From assembly GCF_003334385.1 (NCBI RefSeq), contig NZ_QOWN01000036.1: DNA of 43,104 bases, one strand, 5' to 3'. Under the pieces are notes generated by a model. It did no database searches. It was not told where the DNA came from and saw only the letters and a program-made list of their open reading frames with translations. The translations under genes and the position numbers were made by a program. Shown here in pieces: positions 72 through 34,900 of this stretch (position 1 is the stretch's first letter; each line of letters begins with the position of its first letter). The DNA comes from Escherichia coli. GTDB lineage: Bacteria > Pseudomonadota > Gammaproteobacteria > Enterobacterales > Enterobacteriaceae.

Positions 72-107
72 GATACTACGCTGGATACTACAACTAACTA
101 TGTTAGT

Positions 108-124
108 GGTGGGTCGTGCAGGAT
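108..124 (-). repeat. 17-bp copy of the 3' end of tRNA-Lys (tggtgggtcgtgcagga) in the lysT-valT spacer
   Basis: Exact match of 108-124 to 207-223 (the 3' end of the lysT gene), not followed by the rest of a tRNA. Confidence 0.6.
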
Positions 125-206
125 GACTCGACTTCGTCTCGCCCTTCGGGCCGTTGCTCATGCAACGTTATCCTTCACGTTTTACTACCGCTTCCACCTT
201 AGCGAT

Positions 207-282
207 TGGTGGGTCGTGCAGGATTCGAACCTGCGACCAATTGATTAAAAGTCAACTGCTCTACCAACTGAGCTAACGACCC
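207..282 (-). tRNA. lysT: tRNA-Lys (anticodon UUU)
   Basis: Reverse complement is GGGTCGTTAGCTCAGTTGGTAGAGCAGTTGACTTTTAATCAATTGGTCGCAGGTTCGAATCCTGCACGACCCACCA, 76 nt, anticodon loop CTTTTAA, CCA encoded. Confidence 0.93.
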
Positions 283-14960: not shown

Positions 14961-15683
14961 ATGGGACACAAACCCTTATACCGGCAGATTGCCGATCGCA
15001 TTCGTGAACAAATTGCGCGTGGCGAGCTTAAACCTGGCGATGCGTTACCCACTGAATCAGCGCTACAAACAGAGTTTGGCGTCAGCCGGGTTACGGTGCG
15101 TCAGGCTTTGCGCCAGCTAGTCGAGCAGCAGATCCTCGAAAGCATTCAGGGCAGCGGGACTTACGTCAAAGAAGAGCGGGTCAATTACGATATTTTTCAG
15201 TTAACCAGTTTTGATGAAAAACTGTCGGACCGTCACGTCGATACACACAGTGAAGTTCTGATATTCGAAGTGATTCCGGCTGACGATTTTCTTCAGCAAC
15301 AGCTACAAATCACCCCGCAGGATCGTGTGTGGCATGTGAAGCGCGTGCGCTATCGCAAGCAAAAGCCAATGGCGCTGGAAGAAACCTGGATGCCGCTTGC
15401 GTTGTTCCCGGATCTCACCTGGCAGGTCATGGAAAATTCGAAATATCACTTTATCGAAGAAGTGAAGAAAATGGTTATCGATCGTAGCGAACAGGAAATC
15501 ATTCCTCTGATGCCAACCGAAGAGATGAGCCGTCTGCTTAATATCAGCCAGACAAAGCCGATTCTTGAAAAAGTATCGCGTGGATATTTAGTTGATGGTC
15601 GGGTGTTTGAATATAGCCGCAACGCTTTTAATACCGATGACTATAAATTTACCCTGATAGCGCAGCGAAAATCATCGCGATAA
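14961..15683 (+). CDS. mngR: GntR/HutC-family transcriptional repressor MngR (FarR)
   Basis: 240-aa ORF with N-terminal winged-HTH (ESALQTEFGVSRVTVRQALRQL) and UTRA-type C-terminal domain; divergent from mngAB. Confidence 0.93.
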   Translation: MGHKPLYRQIADRIREQIARGELKPGDALPTESALQTEFGVSRVTVRQALRQLVEQQILESIQGSGTYVKEERVNYDIFQLTSFDEKLSDRHVDTHSEVLIFEVIPADDFLQQQLQITPQDRVWHVKRVRYRKQKPMALEETWMPLALFPDLTWQVMENSKYHFIEEVKKMVIDRSEQEIIPLMPTEEMSRLLNISQTKPILEKVSRGYLVDGRVFEYSRNAFNTDDYKFTLIAQRKSSR

Positions 15684-15686
15684 GCA

Positions 15687-15786
15687 CAAAAAAGGCCATC
15701 ATACGATGGCCAACCATGTCGAAACCGACAGCCCTTCGCCATTCCTGTAGAGGGAAGCGGCGAGGGCTATTTCTTATTACAGATAT
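15687..15786 (-). ncRNA. sdhX: Candidate 3'UTR-derived sRNA SdhX (RybD) downstream of sucD
   Basis: About 100 nt between the sucD stop and an intrinsic terminator (ggccatcgtatgatggcc followed by tttttt on the minus strand, 15687-15712). Assigned from memory of the K-12 annotation, not verified. Confidence 0.45.
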
Positions 15787-16656
15787 TTATTTCAGAACAG
15801 TTTTCAGTGCTTCACCGATATCCGCCAGGCTGCGAACGGTTTTCACGCCTGCGGCTTCCAGAGCAGCGAATTTCTCATCCGCAGTCCCTTTCCCACCGGC
15901 AATGATGGCACCCGCGTGGCCCATACGTTTGCCTTTCGGCGCAGTCACACCAGCGATGTAACCCACAACTGGCTTGGTAACGTGCTCTTTGATGTACGCA
16001 GCTGCTTCTTCTTCAGCGCTACCGCCGATCTCACCGATCATCACGATCGCTTCGGTCTGCGGATCTTTTTCGAACATTTCGAGAATGTCGATAAAGTTAG
16101 AGCCCGGGATCGGGTCACCGCCGATACCGACACAGGTCGACTGACCGAAACCGTAATCCGTGGTCTGTTTAACCGCTTCATAGGTCAGTGTACCGGAACG
16201 GGAAACGATACCCACTTTACCCGGTTTGTGAATGTGACCAGGCTGGATACCGATTTTGCATTCACCCGGAGTGATAACGCCTGGGCAGTTCGGGCCGATC
16301 ATACGAACGCCTGCTTCATCCAGCTTCACTTTCACGGTCAGCATATCCAGCGTCGGGATGCCTTCAGTGATGGTGATAATCAGTTTGATGCCTGCGTCGA
16401 TGGCTTCCAGAATGGAGTCTTTGCAGAACGGTGCTGGTACGTAGATAACAGAAGCGGTAGCGCCAGTGGCAGCAACGGCTTCACGCACGGTGTTGAACAC
16501 CGGCAGGCCGAGGTGGGTGGTGCCGCCTTTACCTGGGGTTACGCCGCCAACCATTTTAGTGCCGTATGCAATGGCCTGTTCTGAGTGGAAAGTCCCCTGG
16601 CTACCGGTAAAGCCCTGGCAGATAACCTTGGTGTTTTTATCGATTAAAATGGACAT
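15787..16656 (-). CDS. sucD: Succinyl-CoA synthetase alpha subunit
   Basis: 289-aa ORF recognised as SucD; 1-nt overlap with sucC. Confidence 0.95.
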
Positions 16657-17822
16657 TATTTCCCCTCCACTGCGGCAACAACCTGCTGAGCTGCATCCGT
16701 CAGACCTTTTGCTGCAATAATATTCAGGCCGCTGTCAGCCAGTTTCTTCGCGCCGAGTTCGGCGTTGTTACCTTCCAGACGTACCACGACCGGTACGTTA
16801 ACACCCACTTCTGCTACCGCGCCGATGATACCGTCAGCGATCAGGTCGCAACGAACGATACCGCCGAAGATGTTAACCAGAACGGCTTTCACTTTGTCGT
16901 CAGAGAGGATGATTTTGAACGCTTCGGTTACACGTTCTTTGGTTGCGCCGCCGCCAACGTCAAGGAAGTTAGCCGGTTCGCCGCCGTGCAGTTTAACGAT
17001 GTCCATCGTACCCATCGCCAGACCTGCGCCGTTAACCATACAACCGATGTTACCGTCCAGCGCAACGTAGTTCAGTTCCCACTGTGCAGCCTGTGCTTCA
17101 CGCGGATCTTCCTGCGACTGGTCACGCATTTCGCGCAGATCAGGCTGGCGGAACAGTGCGTTGCCGTCAGCGCCCAGTTTGCCGTCGAGGCAAATCAGAT
17201 CGCCCTGTTTGGTGATGACCAGCGGGTTGATTTCGATCAACGCCAGGTCGCGCTCCAGGAAAATGGTCGCCAGGCCCATGAAGATTTTGGTGAACTGCTG
17301 AACCAGTTTACCTTCCAGACCCAGTTTGAACGCCAGCTCGCGTCCCTGATACGGCATCGGGCCAGTCAGCGGATCAAGCGCAACTTTATGGATCAGGTGC
17401 GGAGTTTCTTCCGCCACTTTTTCGATTTCCACGCCGCCTTCGGTGGAGGCCATAAAGACCACACGACGGGAACTACGGTCAACAACGGCACCGAGATACA
17501 GCTCTTTAGCGATATCGGTCGCTGCTTCAACCAGAATCTGGTTAACCGGTTGGCCATTGGCATCTGTTTGATACGTTACCAGACGCTTGCCCAGCCAGTT
17601 TTCTGCAAAAGCACGGATGTCTTCTTTGCTGTTTACAACTTTCACACCGCCCGCTTTACCGCGGCCACCAGCGTGAACCTGACATTTCACTACCCACGGA
17701 CCGGCACCGATTTTTGAAGCGGCTTCTTCTGCTTCGCGCGGAGTAGTACAGGCATAACCCACCGGTGCTGGTAAGCCATAGCGGGCAAAAAGTTGTTTTG
17801 CCTGATATTCATGTAAGTTCAT
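16656..17822 (-). CDS. sucC: Succinyl-CoA synthetase beta subunit
   Basis: 388-aa ORF ([18 protein letters not shown]...), ATP-grasp; recognised as SucC. Confidence 0.95.
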
Positions 17823-17905
17823 GTGTTCTGTCCATCCTTCAGTAATCGTTATCTTTTAAACCGTAGACCGAATATTTCGTATCGCTTCCGGGCATTGTCG
17901 GTCAC

Positions 17906-18076
17906 CCGTAGGCCTGATAAGACACGTTAAACGTCACATCAGGCATCGCTTGTCGGATGCGGCGCTAGCGCCTTATCCGACCTACATTGGTGGTCCCGTA
18001 GGCCTGATAAGACGCGTCAGCGTCGCATCAGGCTTCAATTGCCGGAGAAGGCGATAATGCCTTATCCGGTCTACAG
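17906..18076. repeat. REP/BIME cluster in the sucB-sucC spacer
   Basis: Multiple gtaggcctgataagacgcg... and cggatgcggcg... / ccttatccg palindromic units within a 274-bp intergenic gap. Confidence 0.6.
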
Positions 18077-18096
18077 TGCAGGTGAAACTTAAACTA

Positions 18097-19314
18097 CTAC
18101 ACGTCCAGCAGCAGACGCGTCGGATCTTCCAGCAACTCTTTGATCGTTACCAGGAAGCCCACGGATTCGCGACCATCGATCAGACGGTGATCGTAGGACA
18201 GCGCCAGGTACATCATCGGCAGGATCTCAACCTGACCATTCACCGCCATCGGACGATCTTTGATAGCGTGCATACCCAGAATTGCGCTCTGCGGCGGGTT
18301 GATGATCGGCGTAGACATCAGGGAACCGAACACACCACCGTTGGTGATGGTGAAGTTACCACCGGTCAGATCTTCAACGGTCAGCTTGCCGTCACGGCCT
18401 TTGACTGCCAGCTCTTTGATTTTCTTCTCGATGTCTGCCATGCCGAGGGTATCGACATCACGCAGAACCGGCGTCACCAGGCCGCGCGGCGTAGAAACCG
18501 CCATGCTGACGTCGAAATAGTTGTGGTAAACCACGTCATCGCCGTCGATAGAAGCGTTCACTTCCGGGTAACGTTTCAGGGCTTCAACCACCGCTTTCAC
18601 GTAGAAGGACATAAAGCCCAGACGGATGCCGTGGCGTTTTTCAAACGCTTCACCGTACTGCTTACGCAGATCCATAATCGGCTTCATGTTGACTTCGTTG
18701 AACGTGGTCAGCATGGCGGTGGAGTTTTTCGCTTCCAGCAGACGCTCTGCCACACGCTTACGCAGGCGAGTCATCGGGACACGTTTTTCACTACGTGCAG
18801 CCAGAGCCGGTTGCGCCGCCGGAGCAGCCGCTGCCGGAGCAGACTCTTTCGCCGGGGCTTTCGCCAGATGTTTTTCCACATCTTCACGAGTCAGACGACC
18901 ACCCACACCGGTGCCTTTAATGGCGCTGGCGTCGAGATTGTGTTCAGCCAGCAGGCGACGGATCGCCGGGCTTAACGCATCGTTGTTTTGCTCTTCCAGA
19001 GACGCCTGCTGGCGTTGCGCCGGAGTGGACGCTTTCTCTTCAGATTTGGCGCTGGTTTCTTTACCGGCGCTGTTGCCTTCACGCAGGCGACCAAGGATCT
19101 GACGAGACGTTACCGTTGTACCTTCATCTTCCAGAACCGCATCCAGAATGCCGTCTGCTGATGCCGGTACTTCCAGTACCACTTTGTCAGTTTCGATTTC
19201 TACCAGCACTTCATCACGTACGACTGCGTCGCCGGGTTTTTTATGCCAGGTTGCGACGGTGGCATCGGCTACGGATTCAGGCAGGTCAGGGACCAGAATA
19301 TCTACGCTACTCAT
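18097..19314 (-). CDS. sucB: 2-oxoglutarate dehydrogenase E2 (dihydrolipoyl succinyltransferase)
   Basis: 405-aa ORF with N-terminal lipoyl domain (ETDKVVLEV), Ala/Pro linker and catalytic domain. Confidence 0.95.
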
Positions 19315-19328
19315 TGTGTATCCTTTAT

Positions 19329-22130
19329 TTATTCGACGTTCAGCGCGTCATTAACCAGATCTTGTTGCTGTTTCTGGTGAACGGACATATACCCTACCGC
19401 CGGAGAGGCGGAGGCCGGGCGGCCTGCATAACGCAGAGAAGCCCCAAACGGAATCACTTCACGGAAATGATGCTGGCTGCAGTACCATGCGCCCTGGTTG
19501 AGCGGCTCTTCCTGGCACCAGACAAAATCCTTGACGTGAGCAAACTGCTGCAACACTTCCTGCATCGCTTTATGCGGGAACGGGTAGAGTTGCTCGATAC
19601 GCACAATGGCGACATCGTGTTGATTGTTCTTACGACGCTGTTCCAGCAGGTCGTAATAAACCTTACCAGAACACATCACTACGCGCTTCACGCCCTTCGG
19701 ATCAAGCTCGTCGATTTCACCGATGGCTGGCAGGAAGGTGCCGTTCGCCAGTTCTTCGAGGCTGGAAACCGCCAGCGGATGACGCAGCAGGGATTTCGGC
19801 GACATCACGACCAGCGGACGACGCATCCCGCGCAGCGCCTGACGACGCAGCATGTGGTAAACCTGTGCCGGGGTAGACGGTACGCAAACCTGCATGTTTT
19901 GCTCAGCACAAAGTTGCAGATAACGTTCCAGACGCGCGGAGGAGTGCTCCGGCCCCTGCCCTTCGTAACCGTGCGGCAGCAACATCACCAGACCACACAT
20001 CCGGCCCCATTTCTGTTCGCCAGAGGAGATGAACTGGTCGATAACCACCTGCGCACCGTTGGCGAAGTCACCGAACTGCGCTTCCCAGATGGTCAGAGTG
20101 CGTGGTTCTGCGGTGGCATAACCATATTCAAACGCCAGCACTGCTTCTTCAGACAGTACGGAGTCCCAGACACGGAACGCGCCCTGCCCGTTATGGATAT
20201 GTTGCAGCGGCGTGTAAGTGGAACCGTTAGACTGGTTGTGGATCACCGCGTGGCGGTGGAAGAAGGTACCGCGACCGGAGTCTTCACCCGACAGGCGAAC
20301 CGGAATGCCTTCATCAACCAGCGTGGCGTAAGCGAGGTTTTCCGCACCGCCCCAGTCGAACAGTTTCTCACCGGCAGCCATCGCCTGGCGATCGCCATAA
20401 ATCTTGGCAACGCGAGACTGCATTTCAACTGCTTCCGGCACCGTGCTGATGCGTTTCGCCAGCTCCTGCAGGCGCTTCATCTCAACTTTGTTCGGGTACT
20501 CTTCGTCCCATTCGTGGTTGAGGTACGGCGACCAGGTGAAAGAGTGCATGTTCATCGGACGCCACTCTGCCACTACGCAATCGCCAGCATCCAGCGCATC
20601 GCGGTACAGGTTAACCATCTCGGTGGCATCTTCCAGCGTCGCCACTTTTTCCTGCTCCAGCTTGTCAGCGTAGATTTTGCGCGGTGTCGGATGTTTTTTG
20701 ATTTTCTGATACATCAGCGGCTGGGTTGCGCTCGGCTCGTCGGCTTCGTTGTGGCCGTGACGGCGGTAGCACACCAGGTCGATGAAGACATCACGTTTAA
20801 AGGTGTTACGGAAATCGAGCGCCAGACGGGTCACAAAGGCAACGGCTTCCGGATCGTCCGCGTTAACGTGGAAAATCGGGGCCTGAACCATCTTACCGAT
20901 ATCAGTACAGTACGGCGTAGAACGGGCATCCAGCGGATTAGAGGTGGTGAAACCAACCTGGTTGTTGATAACGATACGTACCGTACCGCCAACTTCATAA
21001 CCACGCGCTTTCGACATGTTCAGGGTTTCCTGAACCACGCCCTGCCCGGTCACTGCGGCGTCACCGTGGATGGTGATTGGCAGCACTTTGTTGCTGCTCG
21101 GCTCATCAAGTCTGTCCAGACGGGCACGAACAGAACCGATAACTACCGGGCTTACAATCTCAAGGTGAGACGGGTTAAACGCCAGCGCCAGGTGCACCAG
21201 GCCGCCATCGGTCTGGAAGTCAGACGAGAAGCCCATGTGGTATTTCACGTCACCCGTGCCGAGGTGTTCTTTATGTTTACCGGCGAACTCGTCGAACAAG
21301 TCTTGCGGTTTTTTACCCAGCACGTTCACCAGCACGTTCAGACGACCACGGTGCGCCATCCCGAGAACCACTTCGCGGGTGCCGCTGTTGCCAGCGTGGC
21401 GGATCATCTCTTTAAGCATCGGGATTAACGCGTCACCGCCTTCCAGCGAGAAGCGTTTTGCGCCAGGGAATTTTGCGCCGAGGTAACGTTCAAGACCTTC
21501 AGCGGCGGTCAGTTCGCTTAAGAAGCGTTTTTTCTCTTCGCTATTGAAAGTCGCGCGACCAGACTCGATACGCTGTTGGATCCAGCGTTTTTCTTCGGTG
21601 CTGGTAATGTGCATATACTCGGCACCAATCGGGCCGCAGTAGGTTTGCTTGAGGGCTTCCAGCAGCTCGCCGAGTTTCATGGTTTCTTTGCCGCTGGCAA
21701 ATGAACCGACGTTGAAGGTCTCCTGGAAGTCTGCTTCGGTCAGATCGTGGAAAGACGGATCCAGATCGGCCACTTTATCTTGCTGCCACAGTCCCAGCGG
21801 ATCGAGATTCGCATGCTGGTGACCACGGAAGCGGTATGCGTTAATGAGCTGCAGGACTTTAACCTGCTTCACATTGGTGTCAGGGTCGGAGATCGTTGAA
21901 GAGTAACGTGAAGCGTCTTTCGCCAGGCGGCGGAAATATTCACGCGTTTGAGAGTGGAATTGATCCGGTTTGACTCCCGTACCAGGTAACTGCTGGAACG
22001 TCGAACGCCAGTTAGCGTCAACCGAGTCAGGATCGGTTAAGAAGTCTTCATAGAGCTGTTCTATCCAGCTCTGGTTTGCGCCAGAGAGGTAAGAAGAGTC
22101 CAACCAGGCTTTCAAAGCGCTGTTCTGCAT
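19329..22130 (-). CDS. sucA: 2-oxoglutarate dehydrogenase E1 component
   Basis: 933-aa ORF recognised as SucA ([30 protein letters not shown]...). Confidence 0.95.
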
Positions 22131-22310
22131 CGTGATCCCTTAAGCATCTTTTTTATGCTTACTTCGCCGTGGATACTACCACGCACAGTGATGTGCGTGC
22201 CGGGGTTCACTTGCGAGCTCTTGTCTACGTAGTGGCTCGCGAAGGAACCTTTAAAAACTGTCTTAGTGTCAGGGGCAGTTTTTAAAGATTTCCTGCATTT
22301 CTTTGTTACG

Positions 22311-22428
22311 CCTGATGCGCTGCGCTTATCAGGCCTACGGGTAATGACTTGTAGGCCGGATAAGGCGTTCACGCCGCATCCGGCACTGGTTGCCTGATGC
22401 GACGCTTGCGCGTCTTATCAGGCCTACG
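22311..22428. repeat. REP/BIME cluster in the sdhB-sucA spacer
   Basis: cctgatgcgctgcgcttatcaggcctacg..., ggccggataaggcgttcacgccgcatccggc... and gcctgatgcgacgcttgcgcgtcttatcaggcctacgg palindromic units. Confidence 0.6.
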
Positions 22429-22430
22429 GT

Positions 22431-23147
22431 TTACGCATTACGTTGCAACAACATCGACTTGATATGGCCGATGGCGCGCGTCGGGTTCAGCCCCTTCGGA
22501 CATACACTGACGCAGTTCATGATGCTGTGACAGCGGAATACGCTGAATGCATCACTCAAACCGTCGAGGCGGCTGTCAGTCTCGGTATCACGGCTATCAA
22601 TCAGGAAACGATATGCCGCTAACAAGCCTGCCGGGCCGATAAACTTATCGGGATTCCACCAGAAAGACGGACAAGAGGTTGAACAACATGCGCAGAGAAT
22701 ACATTCATACAGCCCGTCGAGTTTTTCGCGCTGCTCTGGCATCTGTAAATGCTCGCGAGCTGGCGGATTTTGTCCATTATTCAACAGGTAAGGCTTAATT
22801 TTCTCATATTGCGCATAGAATTGTCCCATGTCTACCACCAAATCGCGGATCACCGGTAAACCTGGCAGCGGGCGAATCACAATCTTCTTGCCCGGCTGGT
22901 TGAGTGCCGAAATCGGGGTAATACAGGCCAGACCATTCTTGCCGTTCATGTTCAGACCGTCGGAACCGCACACACCTTCACGGCAGGAGCGGCGGAACGA
23001 CAGGCTGGGATCTTTCTCTTTTAGCTGGATAAGCGCATCCAGCAGCATCATGTCGCGACCTTCATCCGCTTCCAGGGTGTAATCCTGCATACGCGGAGCA
23101 TCATCAACATCCGGGTTATAGCGATAAATTGAAAACTCGAGTCTCAT
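22431..23147 (-). CDS. sdhB: Succinate dehydrogenase iron-sulfur subunit
   Basis: 238-aa ORF with Cys clusters for 2Fe-2S/4Fe-4S/3Fe-4S centres. Confidence 0.95.
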   Translation of the reverse strand: MRLEFSIYRYNPDVDDAPRMQDYTLEADEGRDMMLLDALIQLKEKDPSLSFRRSCREGVCGSDGLNMNGKNGLACITPISALNQPGKKIVIRPLPGLPVIRDLVVDMGQFYAQYEKIKPYLLNNGQNPPAREHLQMPEQREKLDGLYECILCACCSTSCPSFWWNPDKFIGPAGLLAAYRFLIDSRDTETDSRLDGLSDAFSVFRCHSIMNCVSVCPKGLNPTRAIGHIKSMLLQRNA

Positions 23148-23162
23148 TTTCCTGTCTCCGCA

Positions 23163-24929
23163 TTAGTAAGTACGAATCTTCGGCGGGAATGCCGGGCGCA
23201 GTTTCGGTTCCATGTTGACGCTTCGGCGCGTCATGGATTCCGACTCTGGCAGATACAGGGAGTGGCACAGCCAGTTTTCATCATCACGATCCGGGAAGTC
23301 GAAGCGGCTATGCGCGCCACGGCTTTCGGTACGGAAGTTGGCAGAAACAGCCGTTGCATACGCCGTTTCCATCAGGTTATCCAGTTCCAGGCACTCAACG
23401 CGCTGGGTGTTGAACTCGCTGGAAGTGTCATCCAGACGGGCATTTTTCAGACGCTCGCGGATCACTTTCAACTGCTCAAGCCCTTTCGCCATCGCATCAC
23501 CTTCACGGAAGACCGAGAAGTTATGCTGCATACATTCTTGCAGCGCTTTACGGATCGCCACCGGATCTTCACCGTTACGATTATTGTTCCAGCGGTTCAG
23601 GCGATCCAGAGACGCTTCAACATCAGACTCGCTGGCATCGCGCAGTGCGCCCTGCTCGGCGATAGACTCTTGCAGATGCAGACCTGCCGCGCGACCAAAG
23701 ACCACCAGGTCCAGCAGCGAGTTGCCGCCCAGACGGTTAGCGCCGTGTACCGATACACAAGCGATTTCACCAACGGCAAACAGTCCCGGAACAACCACAT
23801 CTTCGCCTTTCTCATTCACAGTCAGCGCCTGACCGGTAACTTTGGTCGGAATACCGCCCATCATGTAGTGACAGGTTGGGATAACCGGAATCGGCTCTTT
23901 CACCGGATCGACGTGAGCGAAGGTACGGGAAAGCTCCAGGATACCCGGCAGACGGGATTCGAGAACTTCTTTACCCAGGTGATCGAGTTTCAGTTTCGCG
24001 TGTGGCCCCCACGGACCATCACAGCCGCGACCTTCACGGATTTCGATCATGATGGAACGCGCAACCACGTCACGGCCCGCCAGGTCTTTGGCGTTCGGCG
24101 CATAACGCTCCATAAAACGTTCGCCATGTTTGTTCAGCAGATAACCGCCTTCACCACGGCAACCTTCGGTGACCAGTACGCCCGCACCGGCAATGCCGGT
24201 CGGGTGGAACTGCCACATTTCCATATCCTGCACCGGTACGCCGGCACGGATAGCCATGCCGACACCGTCGCCGGTGTTAATGTGGGCGTTGGTGGTGGAC
24301 TGATAAATACGCCCTGCTCCGCCAGTCGCCAGCACGGTAGCGCGGGCTTTGAAATAAACCACTTCACCGGTTTCGATGCACAGTGCGGTACAACCCACCA
24401 CCGCGCCATCCTGGTTTTTCACCAGATCCAGCGCATACCACTCGGAGAAAATGGTGGTGTGGTTTTTCAGGTTCTGCTGATAAAGCGTGTGCAACAGTGC
24501 GTGACCGGTACGGTCAGCTGCTGCCGCAGTGCGTGCCGCCTGCTCGCCGCCGAAGTTTTTCGACTGACCGCCAAACGGACGTTGATAGATACGACCATCA
24601 TCGAGACGCGAGAACGGCAGGCCCATGTGTTCGAGTTCCAGAATCGCTTCCGGCCCGGTTTTACACATATATTCAATCGCGTCCTGGTCACCGATATAGT
24701 CCGACCCTTTCACGGTGTCGTACATATGCCATTCCCAGTTATCTTCATGGGTATTACCCAGCGCAACGGTAATGCCGCCTTGCGCAGAAACGGTATGGGA
24801 ACGGGTCGGGAAGACTTTAGAGAGCAGCGCACAGGTCTGGCCGCTCTGGGAAATTTGCAGCGCCGCGCGCATACCTGCGCCACCGGCACCAATCACAACT
24901 GCATCAAATTCTCTGACTGGCAATTTCAT
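23163..24929 (-). CDS. sdhA: Succinate dehydrogenase flavoprotein subunit
   Basis: 588 aa from [24 protein letters not shown] (FAD-binding GxGxxG); the track ORF adds 4 upstream codons. 1-nt stop/start overlap with sdhD. Confidence 0.95.
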
Positions 24930-25276
24930 CACACACCCCACACCACAACGAATCCATAAATCACGTAAACCACCAGTGCAACGACAATCACCAGTTGCAG
25001 CATCAGGCGCAAAGCCAGCGGTTTAACGTAGTCGGTCAACACCTGCCACATGCCGATCCAGGCATGGATCAAGATAGAAAACAGCGCCAGCAGGGTGAAC
25101 ACTTTGGTGAACGCAGAGGCGAAGAAACCGATCCAGACTTCATATGTCAGCTCGCCACTGGTAGCGAAAAAACCGACCATATAAATGATGTAGAGCGTCA
25201 GAACGATAGCGGTAGCGCGAACGAGGATGAAATCATGTACGCCATTGCGTCCTAATGCGGAGGCGTTGCTTACCAT
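24929..25276 (-). CDS. sdhD: Succinate dehydrogenase membrane anchor subunit
   Basis: 115-aa hydrophobic ORF between sdhC and sdhA. Confidence 0.93.
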
Positions 25277-25659
25277 ACGAGGACTCCTGCGAGAAGTGAA
25301 AGCACGACAGTAATAACAAAGGAGATTTTGGCGGAGCGTTTACCCGCTTCGAATGTTTCTTCCAGATAGCCAAAATCCATCATCATGTGGCGAATACCTA
25401 CGACGACGTGATACGCCAGAGCGGTAAGGATGCCCCACATGATAAATTTGACGAAGAAGCTGCCCATAATCGCGGAAGCTTGCTCGAAACCTTCAGGGGA
25501 AGAGAGGCTGGTACCCAGAAGCCACAGCAGGATGCCCACTGCAACAAAGGTGATCACACCGGAAACGCGATGGAGAATGGACGCTATCGCCGTGATGGGG
25601 AACCGGATGGTCTGTAGGTCCAGATTAACAGGTCTTTGTTTTTTCACATTTCTTATCAT
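25270..25659 (-). CDS. sdhC: Succinate dehydrogenase cytochrome b556 subunit
   Basis: 129 aa from [31 protein letters not shown]; the track ORF has a 5-codon upstream extension. Confidence 0.9.
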
Positions 25660-26367
25660 GAATAACGCCCACATGCTGTTCTTATTATTCCCTGGGGACT
25701 ACGGGCACAGAGGTTAACTTTCTGTTACCTGGAGACGTCGGGATTTCCTTCCTCCGGTCTGCTTGCGGGTCAGACAGCGTCCTTTCTATAACTGCGCGTC
25801 ATGCAAAACACTGCTTCCAGATGCGAAAACGACACGTTACAACGCTGGGTGGCTCGGGATTGCAGGGTGTTCCGGAGACCTGGCGGCAGTATAGGCTGTT
25901 CACAAAATCATTACAATTAACCTACATATAGTTTGTCGGGTTTTATCCTGAACAGTGATCCAGGTCACGATAACAACATTTATTTAATTTTTAATCATCT
26001 AATTTGACAATCATTCAACAAAGTTGTTACAAACATTACCAGGAAAAGCATATAATGCGTAAAAGTTATGAAGTCGGTATTTCACCTAAGATTAACTTAT
26101 GTAACAGTGTGGAAGTATTGACCAATTCATTCGGGACAGTTATTAGTGGTAGACAAGTTTAATAATTCGGATTGCTAAGTACTTGATTCGCCATTTATTC
26201 GTCATCAATGGATCCTTTACCTGCAAGCGCCCAGAGCTCTGTACCCAGGTTTTCCCCTCTTTCACAGAGCGGCGAGCCAAATAAAAAACGGGTAAAGCCA
26301 GGTTGATGTGCGAAGGCAAATTTAAGTTCCGGCAGTCTTACGCAATAAGGCGCTAAGGAGACCTTAA
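25660..26367. promoter_or_regulatory. Divergent sdhC / gltA control region
   Basis: 708-bp AT-rich spacer between divergently oriented sdhC and gltA; known to carry promoters for both under ArcA/CRP/FNR control, and the sdhC leader is an sRNA target. Individual sites not mapped here. Confidence 0.6.
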
Positions 26368-27651
26368 ATGGCTGATACAAAAGCAAAACTCACCCTCAAC
26401 GGGGATACAGCTGTTGAACTGGATGTGCTGAAAGGCACGCTGGGTCAAGATGTTATTGATATCCGTACTCTCGGTTCAAAAGGTGTGTTCACCTTTGACC
26501 CAGGCTTCACTTCAACCGCATCCTGCGAATCTAAAATTACTTTTATTGATGGTGATGAAGGTATTTTGCTGCACCGCGGTTTCCCGATCGATCAGCTGGC
26601 GACCGATTCTAACTACCTGGAAGTTTGTTACATCCTGCTGAATGGTGAAAAACCGACTCAGGAACAGTATGACGAATTTAAAACTACGGTGACCCGTCAT
26701 ACCATGATCCACGAGCAGATTACCCGTCTGTTCCATGCTTTCCGTCGCGACTCGCATCCAATGGCAGTCATGTGTGGTATTACCGGCGCGCTGGCGGCGT
26801 TCTATCACGACTCGCTGGATGTTAACAATCCTCGTCACCGTGAAATTGCCGCGTTCCGCCTGCTGTCGAAAATGCCGACCATGGCCGCGATGTGTTACAA
26901 GTATTCCATTGGTCAGCCATTTGTTTACCCGCGCAACGATCTCTCCTACGCCGGTAACTTCCTGAATATGATGTTCTCCACGCCGTGCGAACCGTATGAA
27001 GTTAATCCGATTCTGGAACGTGCTATGGACCGTATTCTGATCCTGCACGCTGACCATGAACAGAACGCCTCTACCTCCACCGTGCGTACCGCTGGCTCTT
27101 CGGGTGCGAACCCGTTTGCCTGTATCGCAGCAGGTATTGCTTCACTGTGGGGACCTGCGCACGGCGGTGCTAACGAAGCGGCGCTGAAAATGCTGGAAGA
27201 AATCAGCTCCGTTAAACACATTCCGGAATTTGTTCGTCGTGCGAAAGACAAAAATGATTCTTTCCGCCTGATGGGCTTCGGTCACCGCGTGTACAAAAAT
27301 TACGACCCGCGCGCCACCGTAATGCGTGAAACCTGCCATGAAGTGCTGAAAGAGCTGGGCACGAAGGATGACCTGCTGGAAGTGGCTATGGAGCTGGAAA
27401 ACATCGCGCTGAACGACCCGTACTTTATCGAGAAGAAACTGTACCCGAACGTCGATTTCTACTCTGGTATCATCCTGAAAGCGATGGGTATTCCGTCTTC
27501 CATGTTCACCGTCATTTTCGCAATGGCACGTACCGTTGGCTGGATCGCCCACTGGAGCGAAATGCACAGTGACGGTATGAAGATTGCCCGTCCGCGTCAG
27601 CTGTATACAGGATATGAAAAACGCGACTTTAAAAGCGATATCAAGCGTTAA
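26368..27651 (+). CDS. gltA: Citrate synthase (type II)
   Basis: 427-aa ORF ([47 protein letters not shown]...) with strong Shine-Dalgarno (aaggag). Confidence 0.96.
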
Positions 27652-27679
27652 TGGTTGATTGCTAAGTTGTAAATATTTT

Positions 27680-27712
27680 AACCCGCCGTTCATATGGCGG
27701 GTTGATTTTTAT
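27680..27712 (+). terminator. Intrinsic terminator of gltA
   Basis: cccgcc-gttcatat-ggcggg hairpin followed by ttgattttta, about 30 nt after the gltA stop. Confidence 0.6.
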
Positions 27713-28039
27713 ATGCCTAAACACAAAAATTGTAAAAATAAAATCCATTAACAGACCTATATAGATATTTAAAAAGAATAGAACAGCTCAAATTATCAGC
27801 AACCCAATACTTTCAATTAAAAACGTCATGGTAGTCGCATTTATAACCCTATGAAAATGACGTCTATCTATACCCCCCTATATTTTATTCATCATACAAC
27901 AAATTCATGATACCAATAATTTAGTTTTGCATTTAATAAAACTAACAATATTTTTAAGCAAAACTAAAAACTAGCAATAATCAAATACGATATTCTGGCG
28001 TAGCTATACCCCTATTCTATATCCTTAAAGGACTCTGTT
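27713..28039 (+). promoter_or_regulatory. Strongly AT-rich upstream region of the ybgD fimbrial operon (candidate H-NS-silenced promoter)
   Basis: About 330 bp dominated by A/T runs, contrasting with the flanking gltA coding sequence; the ybgD Shine-Dalgarno (aaagga) is at its 3' end. Confidence 0.4.
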
Positions 28040-28606
28040 ATGTTTAAAGGACAAAAAACATTGGCCGCACTGGCCGTATCTCTGCTGTTCACTGCACCTG
28101 TTTATGCTGCTGATGAAGGTTCTGGCGAAATTCACTTTAAGGGGGAGGTTATTGAAGCACCTTGTGAAATTCATCCAGAAGATATTGATAAAAACATAGA
28201 TCTTGGACAAGTCACGACAACCCATATAAACCGGGAGCATCATAGCAATAAAGTGGCCGTCGACATTCGCTTGATCAACTGTGATCTGCCTGCTTCTGAC
28301 AACGGTAGCGGAATGCCGGTATCCAAAGTTGGCGTAACCTTCGATAGCACGGCTAAGACAACTGGTGCTACGCCTTTGTTGAGCAACACCAGTGCAGGCG
28401 AAGCAACTGGGGTCGGTGTACGACTGATGGACAAAAATGACGGTAACATCGTATTAGGTTCAGCCGCGCCAGATCTTGACCTGGATGCAAGCTCATCAGA
28501 ACAGACGCTGAACTTTTTCGCCTGGATGGAACAAATTGATAATGCAGTCGATGTCACGGCAGGTGAAGTAACCGCTAACGCAACCTACGTGCTGGATTAT
28601 AAATAA
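28040..28606 (+). CDS. ybgD: Fimbrial major subunit-like protein YbgD
   Basis: 188-aa ORF with signal peptide (MFKGQKTLAALAVSLLFTAPVYA) and a C-terminal beta-strand typical of pilins. Confidence 0.9.
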   Translation: MFKGQKTLAALAVSLLFTAPVYAADEGSGEIHFKGEVIEAPCEIHPEDIDKNIDLGQVTTTHINREHHSNKVAVDIRLINCDLPASDNGSGMPVSKVGVTFDSTAKTTGATPLLSNTSAGEATGVGVRLMDKNDGNIVLGSAAPDLDLDASSSEQTLNFFAWMEQIDNAVDVTAGEVTANATYVLDYK

Positions 28607-28616
28607 GTATTATTTT

Positions 28617-28637
28617 GGCGGCATCATCGCCGCCTTT
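28617..28637 (+). terminator. GC-rich hairpin between ybgD and ybgQ (candidate partial terminator/attenuator)
   Basis: ggcggc-atcatc-gccgcc followed by ttt, 11 nt after the ybgD stop. Confidence 0.35.
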
Positions 28638-28656
28638 CATAAAATATTTATCAGGT

Positions 28657-31113
28657 ATGGACACCGTGAATATTTATCGACTCTCTTTTGTATCCTGCCT
28701 GGTCATGGCGATGCCTTGCGCAATGGCGGTCGAATTCAATCTGAATGTTCTCGATAAATCAATGCGCGACCGCATTGATATTTCATTATTAAAGGAAAAA
28801 GGAGTCATTGCTCCCGGTGAATATTTTGTTAGCGTTGCGGTGAATAACAACAAAATCAGTAATGGGCAAAAAATTAACTGGCAAAAAAAGGGTGACAAAA
28901 CCATTCCATGCATCAATGATTCACTGGTCGATAAATTTGGTTTAAAACCAGATATCCGTCAGTCCTTGCCACAGATAGATCGGTGTATTGATTTCAGTTC
29001 CCGACCTGAAATGCTCTTCAATTTCGATCAAGCCAATCAGCAACTGAATATTAGTATTCCGCAAGCCTGGCTGGCGTGGCACTCAGAAAACTGGGCTCCC
29101 CCCTCTACATGGAAAGAAGGTGTTGCCGGTGTCCTGATGGATTACAACTTGTTTGCCAGCAGCTACCGCCCACAGGACGGCAGCAGCAGCACTAACCTGA
29201 ATGCCTACGGTACCGCCGGAATTAACGCCGGGGCATGGCGCTTACGCAGTGATTACCAGCTTAATAAGACCGATAGCGAAGATAACCATGACCAGTCAGG
29301 CGGAATATCGCGCACCTATCTTTTTCGTCCATTACCGCAATTAGGCTCTAAGTTAACCCTCGGCGAAACCGATTTCAGTTCCAATATTTTCGATGGTTTT
29401 TCTTATACCGGCGCGGCACTGGCGAGTGACGATCGAATGTTACCGTGGGAGCTGCGTGGCTACGCCCCACAAATTAGCGGTATTGCACAGACCAATGCCA
29501 CGGTGACGATCAGTCAATCAGGCCGCGTCATTTACCAGAAAAAAGTCCCGCCAGGCCCGTTTATTATTGATGACCTCAATCAGTCTGTTCAGGGCACGCT
29601 GGATGTCAAAGTGACGGAAGAAGATGGTCGGGTGAACAATTTCCAGGTTTCGGCAGCATCGACGCCCTTCCTGACTCGCCAGGGACAGGTTCGCTATAAA
29701 TTGGCCGCGGGTCAGCCACGGCCTTCCATGTCACATCAAACTGAAAATGAAACCTTTTTTAGCAATGAAGTTTCCTGGGGGATGCTCTCAAACACCTCGC
29801 TGTACGGCGGCCTGCTGATTTCTGATGATGACTACCATTCTGCCGCAATGGGTATCGGGCAAAATATGCTGTGGCTTGGCGCACTGTCCTTTGATGTCAC
29901 CTGGGCCAGTAGCCATTTTGATACTCAGCAGGACGAGCGGGGCTTAAGCTACCGTTTTAATTACAGCAAACAAGTGGATGCCACCAACAGCACGATTTCG
30001 CTCGCCGCTTATCGCTTCTCAGATCGTCATTTTCACAGCTACGCCAACTATCTGGATCACAAATACAACGACAGCGATGCGCAGGACGAAAAACAGACGA
30101 TCAGCTTATCCGTGGGCCAACCGATTACCCCACTAAACCTCAATCTTTACGCCAACCTGCTACATCAAACCTGGTGGAATGCAGACGCCTCCACGACCGC
30201 CAACATCACAGCAGGTTTTAATGTTGATATTGGTGACTGGAGAGATATCTCGATTTCGACGTCATTCAATACGACCCACTACGAAGATAAAGATCGCGAC
30301 AACCAGATTTATCTGTCGATTTCGCTCCCCTTCGGTAACGGTGGTCGGGTTGGCTATGACATGCAAAACAGTAGCCACAGCACCATACACCGCATGTCGT
30401 GGAACGATACGCTGGATGAACGTAATAGCTGGGGCATGTCTGCCGGACTGCAATCCGATCGTCCGGACAATGGAGCCCAGGTGAGCGGTAACTATCAGCA
30501 CCTGAGTTCAGCGGGTGAGTGGGATATTTCTGGTACCTATGCCGCCAGTGATTACAGTTCCGTCAGCAGCAGCTGGAGCGGTTCTTTCACCGCAACCCAA
30601 TATGGTGCAGCATTTCATCGCCGCAGCTCCACCAATGAACCACGCCTGATGGTCAGCACCGATGGCGTGGCAGATATTCCGGTTCAGGGCAATCTCGACT
30701 ACACCAACCATTTTGGCATTGCGGTGGTGCCGTTGATTTCCAGTTACCAGCCTTCCACCGTGGCGGTGAACATGAATGACTTACCCGACGGCGTAACAGT
30801 TGCAGAAAACGTCATCAAGGAAACATGGATTGAAGGCGCGATAGGTTACAAATCACTGGCTTCCCGTTCCGGTAAAGACGTTAACGTCATCATACGCAAC
30901 GCCAGCGGTCAGTTCCCTCCCCTCGGTGCGGATATCCGCCAGGATGACAGCGGCATTAGCGTGGGTATGGTTGGCGAGGAAGGACATGCCTGGTTAAGCG
31001 GTGTCGCTGAAAATCAACTGTTTACCGTGGTCTGGGGTGAGCAAAGCTGCATTATTCATCTGCCAGAACGTCTGGAAGACACGACCAAACGCCTGATTTT
31101 ACCTTGTCATTAA
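28657..31113 (+). CDS. ybgQ: Fimbrial outer-membrane usher YbgQ
   Basis: Large ORF with usher-family features; start ambiguous: ATG at 28657 (818 aa), GTG at 28666 (815 aa), or the track ATG at 28615, which lies inside the hairpin. Confidence 0.88.
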   Translation: MDTVNIYRLSFVSCLVMAMPCAMAVEFNLNVLDKSMRDRIDISLLKEKGVIAPGEYFVSVAVNNNKISNGQKINWQKKGDKTIPCINDSLVDKFGLKPDIRQSLPQIDRCIDFSSRPEMLFNFDQANQQLNISIPQAWLAWHSENWAPPSTWKEGVAGVLMDYNLFASSYRPQDGSSSTNLNAYGTAGINAGAWRLRSDYQLNKTDSEDNHDQSGGISRTYLFRPLPQLGSKLTLGETDFSSNIFDGFSYTGAALASDDRMLPWELRGYAPQISGIAQTNATVTISQSGRVIYQKKVPPGPFIIDDLNQSVQGTLDVKVTEEDGRVNNFQVSAASTPFLTRQGQVRYKLAAGQPRPSMSHQTENETFFSNEVSWGMLSNTSLYGGLLISDDDYHSAAMGIGQNMLWLGALSFDVTWASSHFDTQQDERGLSYRFNYSKQVDATNSTISLAAYRFSDRHFHSYANYLDHKYNDSDAQDEKQTISLSVGQPITPLNLNLYANLLHQTWWNADASTTANITAGFNVDIGDWRDISISTSFNTTHYEDKDRDNQIYLSISLPFGNGGRVGYDMQNSSHSTIHRMSWNDTLDERNSWGMSAGLQSDRPDNGAQVSGNYQHLSSAGEWDISGTYAASDYSSVSSSWSGSFTATQYGAAFHRRSSTNEPRLMVSTDGVADIPVQGNLDYTNHFGIAVVPLISSYQPSTVAVNMNDLPDGVTVAENVIKETWIEGAIGYKSLASRSGKDVNVIIRNASGQFPPLGADIRQDDSGISVGMVGEEGHAWLSGVAENQLFTVVWGEQSCIIHLPERLEDTTKRLILPCH

Positions 31114-31127
31114 TTAAGGAAAAGAGA

Positions 31128-31856
31128 ATGACATTTATTAAAGGATTACCCTTAATGTTGTTAACCATCAGCTTGGGTTGCAATGCTGCGGTGCAACCCG
31201 ATCGCACACGCATTGTGTTTAACGCCAATGACAAAGCCACCAGCCTGCGTATCGAAAACCAAAGTGACAAACTGCCTTATCTTGCTTATTCCTGGATAGA
31301 AAATGAAAAAGGGGAGAAAAGCGATGCTCTTCTGGTCGCTTTGCCCCCTATTCAACGTCTGGAACCGAAAGCGACATCGCAGGTGCGGGTTGTGAAACAA
31401 GCCTCAACCACACAATTACCTGGCGATCGCGAAACGCTATTTTTCTACAATATGCGCGAAATTCCTCCCGCTCCGGATAAAAGCAGCGACCATGCGATAC
31501 TTCAGGTCGCTATTCAAAGTCGTATTAAATTGTTCTGGCGACCGGCTGCATTACGCAAGAAAGCAGGAGAAAAGGTCGAACTGCAGTTACAGGTCAGCCA
31601 GCAGGGCAACCAACTGACACTGAAAAATCCTACCGCGTATTATCTGACCATTGCCTATCTGGGGAGAAATGAAAAAGGCGTTCTCCCAGGCTTCAAAACC
31701 GTGATGGTTGCACCTTTTAGTACGGTCAACACAAACACCGGAAGTTATAGCGGCAGCCAGTTTTATCTCGGTTACATGGATGATTACGGCGCATTACGCA
31801 TGACGACGCTCAACTGCAGCGGACAATGCCGTTTACAAGCAGTGGAGGCGAAATGA
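31128..31856 (+). CDS. ybgP: Fimbrial periplasmic chaperone YbgP (PapD-like)
   Basis: 242 aa from [20 protein letters not shown] with a good Shine-Dalgarno (aaggaaaagag); the track ORF adds 8 upstream codons. Confidence 0.9.
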
Positions 31857-32914
31857 GTGCTGGCAAGGGATTGTTGCTCGTCATCTGCCTGTTATTTCTG
31901 CCGTTGAAGTCTGCAATGGCGCTGAACTGCTATTTTGGTACATCTGGTGGCGCAGTAGAAAAATCAGAAGCGATTCAACCGTTTGCTGTACCAGGCAATG
32001 CCAAACCCGGTGATAAGATCTGGGAATCTGACGATATTAAAATTCCCGTCTATTGTGACAACAATACCAACGGCAACTTTGAAAGCGAGCATGTCTACGC
32101 CTGGGTAAACCCCTATCCGGGGGTGCAGGATCGTTATTATCAACTCGGCGTGACATACAACGGTGTCGATTACGATGCCAGTCTGGGAAAAAGTCGCATC
32201 GACACTAACCAGTGTATCGACAGTAAGAACATTGATATTTATACCCCTGAGCAGATCATCGCGATGGGATGGCAGAACAAAATTTGCTCGGGCGATCCCG
32301 CTAATATTCATATGTCGCGTACCTTTCTCGCTCGCATGCGGTTATACGTCAAAATACGAGAAATGCCGCCGCATGATTATCAAAGTACGCTTAGCGACTA
32401 TATCGTCGTGCAATTTGACGGTGCCGGTAGCGTTAACGAAGACCCTACTGCCCAAAACCTGAAATATCATATTACTGGTCTGGAAAACATTCGCGTGCTG
32501 GATTGCAGCGTCAATTTTTCCATTTCACCGGAAACACAGGTGATTGATTTTGGTAAATTTAATTTGCTGGATATACGTCGCCACACAATGTCGAAAACGT
32601 TCAGTATTAAAACGACCAAGAGCCAAAACGATCAATGCACCGACGGATTTAAAGTCAGTTCCTCCTTTTATACCGAAGAAACGTTGGTTGAAGAAGATAA
32701 AGCATTGTTGATTGGTAATGGTCTGAAGCTACGTTTACTGGATGAAAACGCCTCGCCTTATACCTTCAATAAATATGCTGAATACGCCGATTTCACCAGT
32801 GACATGTTGGTCTACGAAAAAACCTATACGGCTGAACTTTCGTCCATTCCAGGCACCCCCATCGAGGCTGGCCCCTTCGATACAGTGGTGCTTTTTAAGA
32901 TTAACTATAACTGA
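31853..32914 (+). CDS. ybgO: Fimbrial adhesin-like protein YbgO
   Basis: 353 aa from [23 protein letters not shown]; ATGA overlap with the ybgP stop; operon-terminal position typical of tip adhesins. Confidence 0.88.
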
Positions 32915-33065
32915 TTTACCATGATGCCCTTTGCCGCCGGAAAGGGCATCTCTTTCAGAAAATTGCTGATTTTCCCCTTTTCCTTGATTGCTGTTATTTT
33001 TTCCTGGCCCAGCTTTCTTTATGCTGTATCGATACACCAAAGAGAAAATAATGAGGGAGCGAAGG

Positions 33066-34112
33066 ATGCCAGTTTTGCAGTGGGGAATGTTATGTGTGCT
33101 ATCACTTCTCCTTTCTATTGGTTTCCTCGCGGTACATCTCCCGGCGGCGCTATTACTTGGGCCGATGATCGCCGGGATCATCTTTAGTATGCGCGGAATT
33201 ACTCTGCAACTTCCCCGCTCTGCTTTTCTCGCCGCCCAGGCCATTCTTGGCTGCATGATTGCGCAAAACCTCACTGGTTCGATTCTCACCACCCTGGCCG
33301 TCAACTGGCCGATCGTGCTTGCAATTTTACTGGTAACGCTGCTTTCCAGCGCCATTGTGGGTTGGTTATTGGTGCGCTATAGCTCATTGCCTGGAAATAC
33401 CGGTGCCTGGGGCTCCTCTCCTGGCGGCGCGGCGGCAATGGTCGCTATGGCGCAAGATTACGGCGCAGATATTCGCCTGGTGGCGTTTATGCAATATCTG
33501 CGAGTGCTGTTCGTCGCGGGGGCCGCTGTTCTGGTCACCCGCATGATGCTGGGCGATAACGCTGAAGCGGTTAACCAGCATATCGTCTGGTTCCCGCCAG
33601 TGAGCATTAATCTCCTGCTTACTATTTTGCTCGCGGTCGTTGCCGGTACAGTGGGATGCCTGCTGCGTCTTCCTTCCGGCACGATGCTCATCCCGATGCT
33701 GGCGGGCGCAGTGCTCCAGTCTGGTCAGCTCATCACCATCGAACTACCGGAATGGCTGCTGGCGATGGCGTATATGGCAATTGGCTGGCGGATTGGTCTT
33801 GGTTTCGATAAACAAATCTTACTGCGGGCACTACGCCCGCTACCGCAAATCCTGCTGTCGATTTTTGCTCTGCTGGCTATTTGTGCGGGTATGGCGTGGG
33901 GGCTGACCCGGTTTATGCACATTGATTTTATGACTGCCTACCTCGCCACCAGCCCCGGCGGGCTTGATACCGTGGCGGTCATCGCCGCAGGGAGCAATGC
34001 CGATATGGCGCTCATTATGGCGATGCAAACCCTACGCCTGTTCAGTATTTTGCTGACAGGGCCTGCCATTGCGCGGTTTATTTCAACCTATGCGCCGAAG
34101 CGGTCGGCCTAG
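33066..34112 (+). CDS. abrB: Membrane protein AbrB (AbrB-duplication family, putative regulator of aidB)
   Basis: 348 aa from [20 protein letters not shown]; polytopic membrane protein; the track ORF adds 26 upstream codons. Confidence 0.88.
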
Positions 34113-34900
34113 TGCTGGCAGCCAGGGCACCAGTAAAACGGGCGAGATGACAGCGTGGTTTTCTCAATGATGCTGCCACAACGTTCGCACGGTTCGCCAT
34201 CTCGATGAAAAACCTTAAAGCGAAACAGCGCCCCATGATGCTTATTCTCATCCACCTGCCCCCGCGTAGCGTAGGAAAATCGAGGAATCTCCAGTAACGC
34301 GTGTGCGAGTGCATCCAGTTGCGCCGCATTGAGATCTTTCGCTTTATGATTTCCAGTCAACCCAACCTGCCAGAGGATCTCCACCCGCAAATAATTGCCA
34401 AGCCCAGCCAGAAACGCCTGATCGAGCAGTAATCCAGCAAACTGACGGTTACGAAAGCGCGGCGACAATAATCGTTCTTTCACCACCTCCGGCGTCAGAT
34501 TCGGATCCAGCACATCGGGACCAACGCGTTGTAAAAACGGATGCGTGGTCAGTTGTTCCGGGGTCAACATCTCAATATCCGAGGCGCTATAAAGCAGAAT
34601 GGTTTTGTCAGCCGTTTGCAGTTTTACCCGCAATACTCGCGTGGTCTGCGGCTCTTCGCCGGTATCAACCACGCGCCAGACGCCGTAAAGCTGATTATGG
34701 CTGTAGAGCGTTAAGTCGTTGGAAAAATGAGTTAACAACGCCTTACCACGCGTTTCCACATGGGTAACGTGTTGACCGATAAGTTGTGATTGATAAGGTT
34801 TTAACTGCGGGAAGGCAAACCAGACATCAGTTAGTGGTTTGCCTTTGATCGCCGCCTCCAGGTTATCCGCTGCACGGCGGATCTCCGGGCCTTCAGGCAT
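34109..34900 (-). CDS. nei: Endonuclease VIII (DNA glycosylase/AP lyase)
   Basis: 263-aa ORF with N-terminal MPEGPEIRR catalytic motif and C-terminal zinc finger ([25 protein letters not shown]). Confidence 0.95.

Follow-up and report, generated by a model that had tools for sequence, protein, structure and literature searches.

The 274-nt spacer that separates sucB from sucC in the DNA analyzed here, a stretch of 43,104 nt from Escherichia coli (hereafter the window), holds a BIME-2-type array of REP elements, which consists of two y-z2 pairs and a decayed half-palindrome and is located in transcribed sequence. It appears probable that the hairpins of this array block 3' exonucleases and give rise to RNAs ending after sucAB, that transcription mostly reads through them, and that the effect on the ratio of the encoded enzymes is small. 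Since REP-less E. coli strains and other genera have a hairpin at this place too, the array is best regarded as an expandable and redundant replacement for a stem-loop conserved between the two cistrons, and not as a new regulatory device.

[quoted passage not shown] The sequence of the K-12 suc spacer has presumably been available since the middle of that decade, and we take it that its REPs were noted in sequencing papers of the time. A literature text search combining REP with the names of both enzymes gave no result. The window corresponds to a K-12-like segment of the E. coli chromosome, with 99.6-100% identity to complete genomes including K-12 MG1655, and for this reason the suc array is an element that is already known, an ordinary E. 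coli repeat which, beyond its correct annotation, matters little.

Genomic Context of the sucB-sucC Spacer

The surroundings of the operon are those expected for this region of the chromosome, namely tRNA genes with an RtT element at the start of the window (1-282) and the tol-pal region. A CpoB/ybgF RNA thermometer, itself an expected tol-pal neighbor, was recognized by Rfam at 1209-1347 (142 bits). The suc genes and the parts of the spacer are arranged as follows, in the order of transcription:

19329-22130, minus strand: sucA
18097-19314, minus strand: sucB, 405 aa
18094-18099, minus strand: end of sucB, with the stop codon TAG at 18099-18097 and a further in-frame TAG at 18096-18094, according to the sequence and its ORF list
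18075-18096, minus strand: linker of 22 nt after the sucB stop, up to the first REP
18040-18074, minus strand: REP-a, degenerate y-type, 35 nt, GTAG on the transcribed strand, sequence GTAGACCGGATAAGGCATTATCGCCTTCTCCGGCA
17998-18034, plus strand: REP-b, z2-type, 37 nt, GTAG on the plus strand, orientation opposite to that of REP-a
17951-17985, minus strand: REP-c, y-type, 35 nt, GTAG on the minus strand, with AA/GC bulge
17908-17945, plus strand: REP-d, diverged z2-type, 38 nt, GTAG on the plus strand, inverted
17863-17894, plus strand: "REP-e", degenerate REP-like half-palindrome, -3.2 kcal/mol alone, no stable hairpin of its own
17823-17862, minus strand: tail of the spacer and sucC leader, 40 nt, ending at the sucC AUG
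16656-17822, minus strand: sucC, 388 aa, ATG at 17822-17820
15787-16656, minus strand: sucD

The sucB TAG and the sucC ATG place the spacer at 17823-18096 (274 nt), exactly the bounds given in the preliminary description, and the MG1655 spacer is equally long. On its transcribed strand no small ORF was found. A plus-strand ORF of 299 aa (18076-18975), antisense to sucB and starting inside the spacer, was rejected as spurious, its Arg/His-rich composition being that commonly seen in antisense artefacts. Likewise judged spurious were three ORFs of 26-35 aa on the plus (antisense) strand, which overlap the spacer through the palindromes. A promoter and terminator scan of positions 15500-22700 predicted neither a promoter-like site in the spacer, so that an internal sucCD promoter was rejected, nor a terminator at the REPs; its only match near the sucB stop, at 18114-18094, is a weak stem that reaches into the end of the coding sequence and can be expected by chance. 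The operon terminator is located 3' of sucD (15694-15711, minus strand), where a GGCCATC...GATGGCC stem is followed by a T-run. This position is that of a strong Term-seq 3' end (MG1655 765148) and of the 3' end of the SdhX sRNA, and Rfam at the gathering threshold lists no family there.

Composition and Identity of the REP Array

REPs of E. coli are defined by a GTAG tag, a length of 35 nt for y and 37 nt for z2 and an AA/GC bulge, and BIMEs combine y-z1 or y-z2 units, inversely oriented, into mosaics (PMC8266576). All four REPs of the suc spacer start with GTAG, their lengths are 35, 37, 35, and 38 nt, and they follow the BIME-2 order of y, inverted z2, y, and inverted z2, i.e., two y-z2 pairs at 17908-18074. 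The linkers between successive elements amount to 5, 12, 5, and 13 nt in transcription order. AA stands opposite GC in the bulge of REP-b and REP-c, the corresponding pairs being AA/AC in REP-d and AA/TT in REP-a, both of which are thereby degenerate. Counting and orienting the REPs by comparison with the consensus, which had been set as a check in the preliminary description, yielded four units in alternating orientation, with no mismatch of REP-b to the z2 pattern and two mismatches of REP-c to the y pattern; in 100 dinucleotide-shuffled versions of the window the expectation for such matches was 0.00. Identity to the respective consensus was at the level of 33/37 for REP-d (z2) and 28/35 for REP-a (y). 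The y and z2 consensus strings used here have exact matches in other REP copies of the window.

Tandem Repeats Finder detected an array at 17905-18075 (period 89, 1.9 copies, 79% matches), which is essentially the palindromic block delimited earlier as 17906-18076. Moreover, the pair formed by REP-c and REP-d (17911-17982, minus strand) scored 61.8 bits with the Rfam family RF02564 (naRNA4), above the gathering threshold of 59.5 bits, and the other y-z2 pair (18001-18071, minus strand) scored 56.4 bits, just below this threshold. The consensus and naRNA4 matches, the alternating GTAG palindromes and the tandem period of 89 bear out the earlier assignment of a REP/BIME cluster that parts sucAB from sucCD. 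The statement that the gap is almost entirely composed of REPs was a mild overstatement, as the four REPs with their inner linkers account for 167 of the 274 nt (61%); inclusion of the degenerate fifth element raises this to 212 nt (77%), and the last 40 nt are the sucC leader.

The naRNA4 model was built from REP325 units and is in effect one y-z2 unit, and membership in this family means "BIME-2 unit" and not "functional nucleoid RNA". For REP325 itself, the nucleoid-organizing RNA role that the family name implies could not be reproduced (bioRxiv 10.64898/2026.03.23.713779). BIME-1, in which y-z1 units enclose an IHF linker, was rejected, since the partners of the y elements are z2 and not z1 and a search of the spacer for the IHF core motif WATCAANNNNTTR returned none; the lack of this motif assigns the array to the BIME-2 type.

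Folding of the spacer RNA gave a minimum free energy of -109.1 kcal/mol (z = -6.6 compared to shuffles), with individual REP hairpins in the range of -15 to -22 kcal/mol, namely -16.4 kcal/mol for REP-a, -21.6 kcal/mol for REP-b, -18.8 kcal/mol for REP-c and -15.2 kcal/mol for REP-d. According to the inverted repeat and the fold, the 5' arm of REP-a is also able to pair over a long range with 17863-17877 and to close the whole array; here, the CGGTCTAC end of "REP-e" pairs with GTAGACCG of REP-a, and in K-12 these 8-mers make the long-range stem that closes the entire structure.

The array is wholly extragenic, located between coding sequences, and other REP copies are present in the window at 22309-22427 and 39848-39881. 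Across all 5,426 complete E. coli genomes a 521-nt query found a median of 7 and a maximum of 19 megablast places per genome. The REP family is thought to be dispersed by the RAYT/TnpA-REP transposase.

RNA 3' Ends and Possible Function of the Array

All functional data considered here stem from K-12, which carries the identical 274-nt allele. RNA 3' ends of MG1655 were taken from the Term-seq data of Adams et al. (2021) (PMC7815308, supplementary file 1); their mapping was verified by the printed flanks, the sequence given in the table covering -50 to +10 as checked on the thrL entry. Two of these 3' ends fall in the spacer:

17899, minus strand: MG1655 762937, LB at OD 2.0, 1,500 reads, 9 nt past the CTAC of REP-d
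17855, minus strand: MG1655 762981, LB at OD 0.4, 1,569 reads, 8 nt past the last CTAC, the one closing the array, and 33 nt upstream of the sucC start codon

RNA 3' ends are thus shown to be present at hairpin feet within the spacer. For growth in M63 glucose no 3' end is listed inside it (PMC7815308). The terminal 3' end of the operon at 765148, which belongs to the sucD/SdhX terminator, is represented by 19,842-34,704 reads, and the 3' ends internal to the spacer reach about 4-8% of these terminal-end reads. REPs fold into exonuclease-resistant structures, at which many Rho-dependent transcripts have their steady-state 3' ends (PMC6061677; likewise PMC12306157).

We propose that in the sdhCDAB-sucABCD and sucABCD mRNAs each REP would form a stable hairpin without a U tract, which most polymerases would read through. 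New 3' ends downstream of the array may then arise when an endonuclease cuts the AU-rich leader of sucC or the sucCD region itself, or when transcription occasionally terminates, and 3'-to-5' exonucleases would trim these RNAs until stalled by a REP stem at a distance of 8-9 nt from its foot, as the positions of the mapped 3' ends suggest. As a consequence, RNAs containing sucAB would outlast the sucCD part and the ratio may shift slightly toward 2-oxoglutarate dehydrogenase. The net effect on SucAB:SucCD would probably be small (less than 2-fold) and may overlap with the action of the single hairpin present in REP-less strains. It could also be that the 3' ends in the spacer represent sites of termination or cleavage and not exonuclease stalls. 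The stabilization of upstream mRNA put forward in the preliminary description is hence supported indirectly, by MG1655 3' ends located 9 and 8 nt past the stems, which is where trimming toward a protecting hairpin should leave them.

Evidence on differential decay is available from Dar and Sorek (2018) (PMC5927463), who included sdhCDAB-sucABCD of K-12 BW25113 among the 390 operons analyzed. The pair sucB/sucC is absent from the 47 operons in which neighbors were at least 2-fold apart in both stability and abundance, an absence for which pair-level filters of the study may also be responsible. The bicyclomycin-sensitive Rho-termination regions listed for MG1655 do not include the spacer or its vicinity (PMC7815308). 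The low level of the internal 3' ends, the missing differential-decay call and the missing Rho signal suggest that, under the conditions studied, the effect is below 2-fold and most transcripts read through. The downstream attenuation and the modulation of the enzyme ratio expected in the preliminary description are therefore probably weak, also in view of the 62.7% of genomes that lack the array. sucCD are not known to have a promoter of their own, and since none was predicted in the spacer either, substantial readthrough is needed for their expression.

The main alternative, which we hold to be possible but rather unlikely, is that the array is a neutral passenger, i.e., a selfish or slippage-prone repeat without measurable effect on suc, and that the 3' ends are incidental decay intermediates. 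It is in line with the absence of the array from 62.7% of the genomes and its copy number of 0 to 4, with the recent gain or loss suggested by short-allele strains whose flanks are 99.9% identical, with sucB/sucC receiving no differential-decay call and with the finding of a 2026 study that REPs had no uniform effect on half-life (bioRxiv 10.64898/2026.03.23.713779). Against it stand the discrete and condition-dependent 3' ends at hairpin feet, and the conservation of a junction hairpin across gammaproteobacteria implies that structure at this place is probably not irrelevant. That the BIME drives partial Rho-dependent termination, with fewer polymerases entering sucCD, is decidedly unlikely, despite the fact that Rho-dependent attenuation associated with BIMEs was described by Espeli et al. 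(2001), according to the passages of PMC6061677 and PMC12306157 that refer to that work, and that REP325 limits expression of the downstream gene yjdN about 8-10-fold in a partly Rho-dependent manner (bioRxiv 10.64898/2026.03.23.713779): in MG1655 the spacer and its vicinity are free of called bicyclomycin-sensitive regions, and the REPs lack a U tract or a terminator-like site.

A role at the level of DNA, in which gyrase binds and cleaves the array and thereby relieves supercoiling of the heavily transcribed 10-kb operon, the effects on RNA being secondary, would fit its BIME-2 architecture, as binding and cleavage by DNA gyrase are known from the literature for BIME-2 generally; we consider it very improbable, given that most strains do without the array and that a long-range chromosome-organizing role of REP325 was not reproduced (bioRxiv 10.64898/2026.03.23.713779). 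Hardly credible is a down-regulation of sucB translation by a REP near the stop codon that stalls the terminating ribosome and leads to tmRNA tagging. Such stalling was reported for REPs at most 15 nt from the stop (Liang et al., 2015, as referred to in a passage of PMC12306157), whereas the first REP of the suc array begins 22 nt past the sucB stop and is thus beyond the limit quoted in that passage.

Copy-Number Polymorphism Among E. coli Genomes

The array (at least 80% of the query covered) was found in 2,020 of the 5,426 complete E. coli genomes, and a short 93-nt allele in 3,401 (62.7%). As most E. coli genomes are devoid of the array, a benefit specific to the REPs appears dispensable. 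Spacer lengths were sampled in 60 evenly spaced rows out of the 5,426 genomes, and the sample is in agreement with these totals:

93 nt: 37 of 60
184 nt: 1 of 60
261 nt: 1 of 60
274 nt: 9 of 60
365 nt: 11 of 60
456 nt: 1 of 60

The long alleles differ by whole y-z2 pairs of 91 nt, with one to four pairs corresponding to 184, 274, 365, and 456 nt, as exemplified by the following loci:

L004:424-607: 184-nt allele, one pair
L005:724-1088: 365-nt allele, three pairs
L087:1824-2279: 456-nt allele, four pairs, strain J3
L086:374-634 and L006:1240-1500: 261-nt spacers of E. coli strain FAH and of E. albertii

In the array of E. albertii (261 nt), the apex of REP-d lacks 13 nt through a deletion, and the apex truncation of REP-d in the FAH spacer is similar but not identical. 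For the 93-nt allele a minimum free energy of -25 kcal/mol is predicted, and the range extends to -205 kcal/mol at 456 nt.

The majority allele of 93 nt, found for instance in O157:H7 (L002:424-516) and in E2348/69, contains one 31-nt hairpin, GTAGACCGAC-GTGGATAGGGT-GTCGGTCTAC, which is single-copy in the genome. The outer 8-mers of this hairpin, GTAGACCG and CGGTCTAC, in the long alleles recur exactly as the outermost sequences of the array. The array, with zero to four pairs in steps of 91 nt, thus sits where a unique hairpin stands in the short allele. The 15-nt loop of the short hairpin was sought in the array and not found, and the 93-nt allele could not be derived from a long one by a simple deletion; the change may have been an insertion into a hairpin or a replacement. 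In some short-allele strains the flanks are 99.9% identical to the window, from which allele switching seems to be recent.

It is unlikely, in our estimation, that this polymorphism of zero to four pairs acts as a natural rheostat, in which each y-z2 pair raises either the stability of sucAB-ending RNA or the frequency of stops before sucCD. If it were so, lineages would differ heritably in the ratio of 2-oxoglutarate dehydrogenase to succinyl-CoA synthetase with promoter and coding sequences unchanged. As the array is not fixed in the species, conclusions on suc stoichiometry drawn from K-12 may not hold in other strains. The suc spacer moreover offers a ready natural allele series for gauging the effect of REPs on differential expression within an operon.

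Intercistronic Hairpins in Other Genera

A scan of species-representative genomes yielded at least 80 sucC loci, in a sample without Salmonella, E. fergusonii and E. marmotae. Among the matches listed, sucB was located directly upstream of sucC in 57, and pseudomonads and some others had no adjacent sucB. For Enterobacterales besides E. coli and E. albertii among these matches the spacer measured 56-221 nt, commonly 80-115 nt, which is near the 93-nt allele. A BIME of the E. coli type was sought in 21 fully read Enterobacterales spacers and found in none except that of E. albertii. Several spacers, e.g., those of Citrobacter and Superficieibacter, contain a single hairpin of the form GTAG...CTAC or GCCGGATG...CATCCGGC at the corresponding position.

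A local hairpin with z < -2 was present in 42 of the 57 gammaproteobacterial sucB-sucC spacers listed (L007-L084), with a median of -20.5 kcal/mol, these figures being rough as the z-scores derive from only 40 dinucleotide shuffles per spacer. The hairpins usually start at most 25 nt from the sucB stop, usually lack a U tract, and are mutually unrelated in sequence. Their presence in 42 of the 57 spacers listed shows that a structured element right after sucB is a conserved architecture, which in part of Escherichia is supplied by REPs.

The sucC Leader and Its Complementarity to Spot 42

The leader of sucC comprises an AU-rich single-stranded stretch, a purine-rich Shine-Dalgarno region and complementarity to the Spot 42 sRNA. 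It is kept in Citrobacter, Pluralibacter and Superficieibacter, where the last approximately 30 nt of the spacer read GATAACGATTAC(C)TGAAGGATGGACAGAACAC. The complementarity to Spot 42 is arranged in two blocks, ACGAUUAC and CUGAAGGAUGGACAGAAC, and the duplex of Spot 42 with the leader, calculated after verification of the Spot 42 sequence, was estimated at -27.3 kcal/mol, a value reached by 14 of 500 shuffles. A validated pairing of Spot 42 with sucC and discoordinate SucB/SucD levels on glucose are described in a passage of PMC6393394. Targeting of the sucC leader by Spot 42 could provide an independent route by which SucCD is uncoupled from SucAB. Neither this leader nor the varying copy number of the array had been mentioned in the preliminary description.

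Comparison With Known Systems and Further REP Sites

The closest counterpart of the suc array is the BIME-2 REP325 between yjdM and yjdN, with which it shares the y and z2 classes, the GTAG tag, the AA/GC bulge, the alternating orientation and the tandem pairs. Both are located between two genes of one operon and both vary in copy number between strains. The suc array has fewer units (four), two of which are degenerate, and compared to the naRNA4 model of REP325 units its y-z2 linker is 6 nt shorter. Deletion of REP325 lowered the upstream mRNA about 3-fold and raised the downstream mRNA about 10-fold, partly in a Rho-dependent manner (bioRxiv 10.64898/2026.03.23.713779); whereas REP325 acts 8-10-fold on yjdN, the effect of the suc array is probably much smaller.

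The stabilizer between malE and malF, the classic example of genes in one operon decaying at different rates, is similar in that intercistronic REP hairpins stand 3' of the 5' genes, and in both cases a block of exonucleases after downstream cleavage is expected. However, malEFG, with half-lives of 3.5 compared to 1 min, was recovered in the genome-wide screen and sucB/sucC was not (PMC5927463). Inverted extragenic REPs are also common to the suc array and to BIME-1 (RIP/RIB elements), but the latter are not tandemly repeated and contain z1 and an IHF linker, whereas the suc array is tandem and has neither z1 nor an IHF core. With an intrinsic terminator the array shares GC-rich stem-loops and 3' ends a few nt downstream, and it differs in the lack of a U tract. 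An intrinsic terminator was rejected because the stems are followed by GGGACCACC, GGGTGACCG and GGTTTAAAA, without a U tract, and the scan detected none at the REPs.

A second REP cluster, with three units, was observed in the same operon in the sdhB-sucA spacer (22131-22430):

22391-22427: z2
22351-22384: y
about 22309-22337: short, z1-like

Its first REP begins 3 nt past the sdhB stop and, unlike that of the sucB cluster, falls within the 15-nt distance for ribosome stalling as quoted in the passage of PMC12306157 mentioned above. The y-z2 pair of this cluster matches naRNA4 with 88.4 bits on the plus strand, antisense to the operon, and an MG1655 Term-seq 3' end (758531) lies 5 nt past the third REP. 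A further REP site is located at 39805-39881, where the Rfam family ES036 (CssrF) was recognized on the minus strand at 39805-39847 and is adjoined by a y-type REP at 39848-39881 with one mismatch to the consensus.
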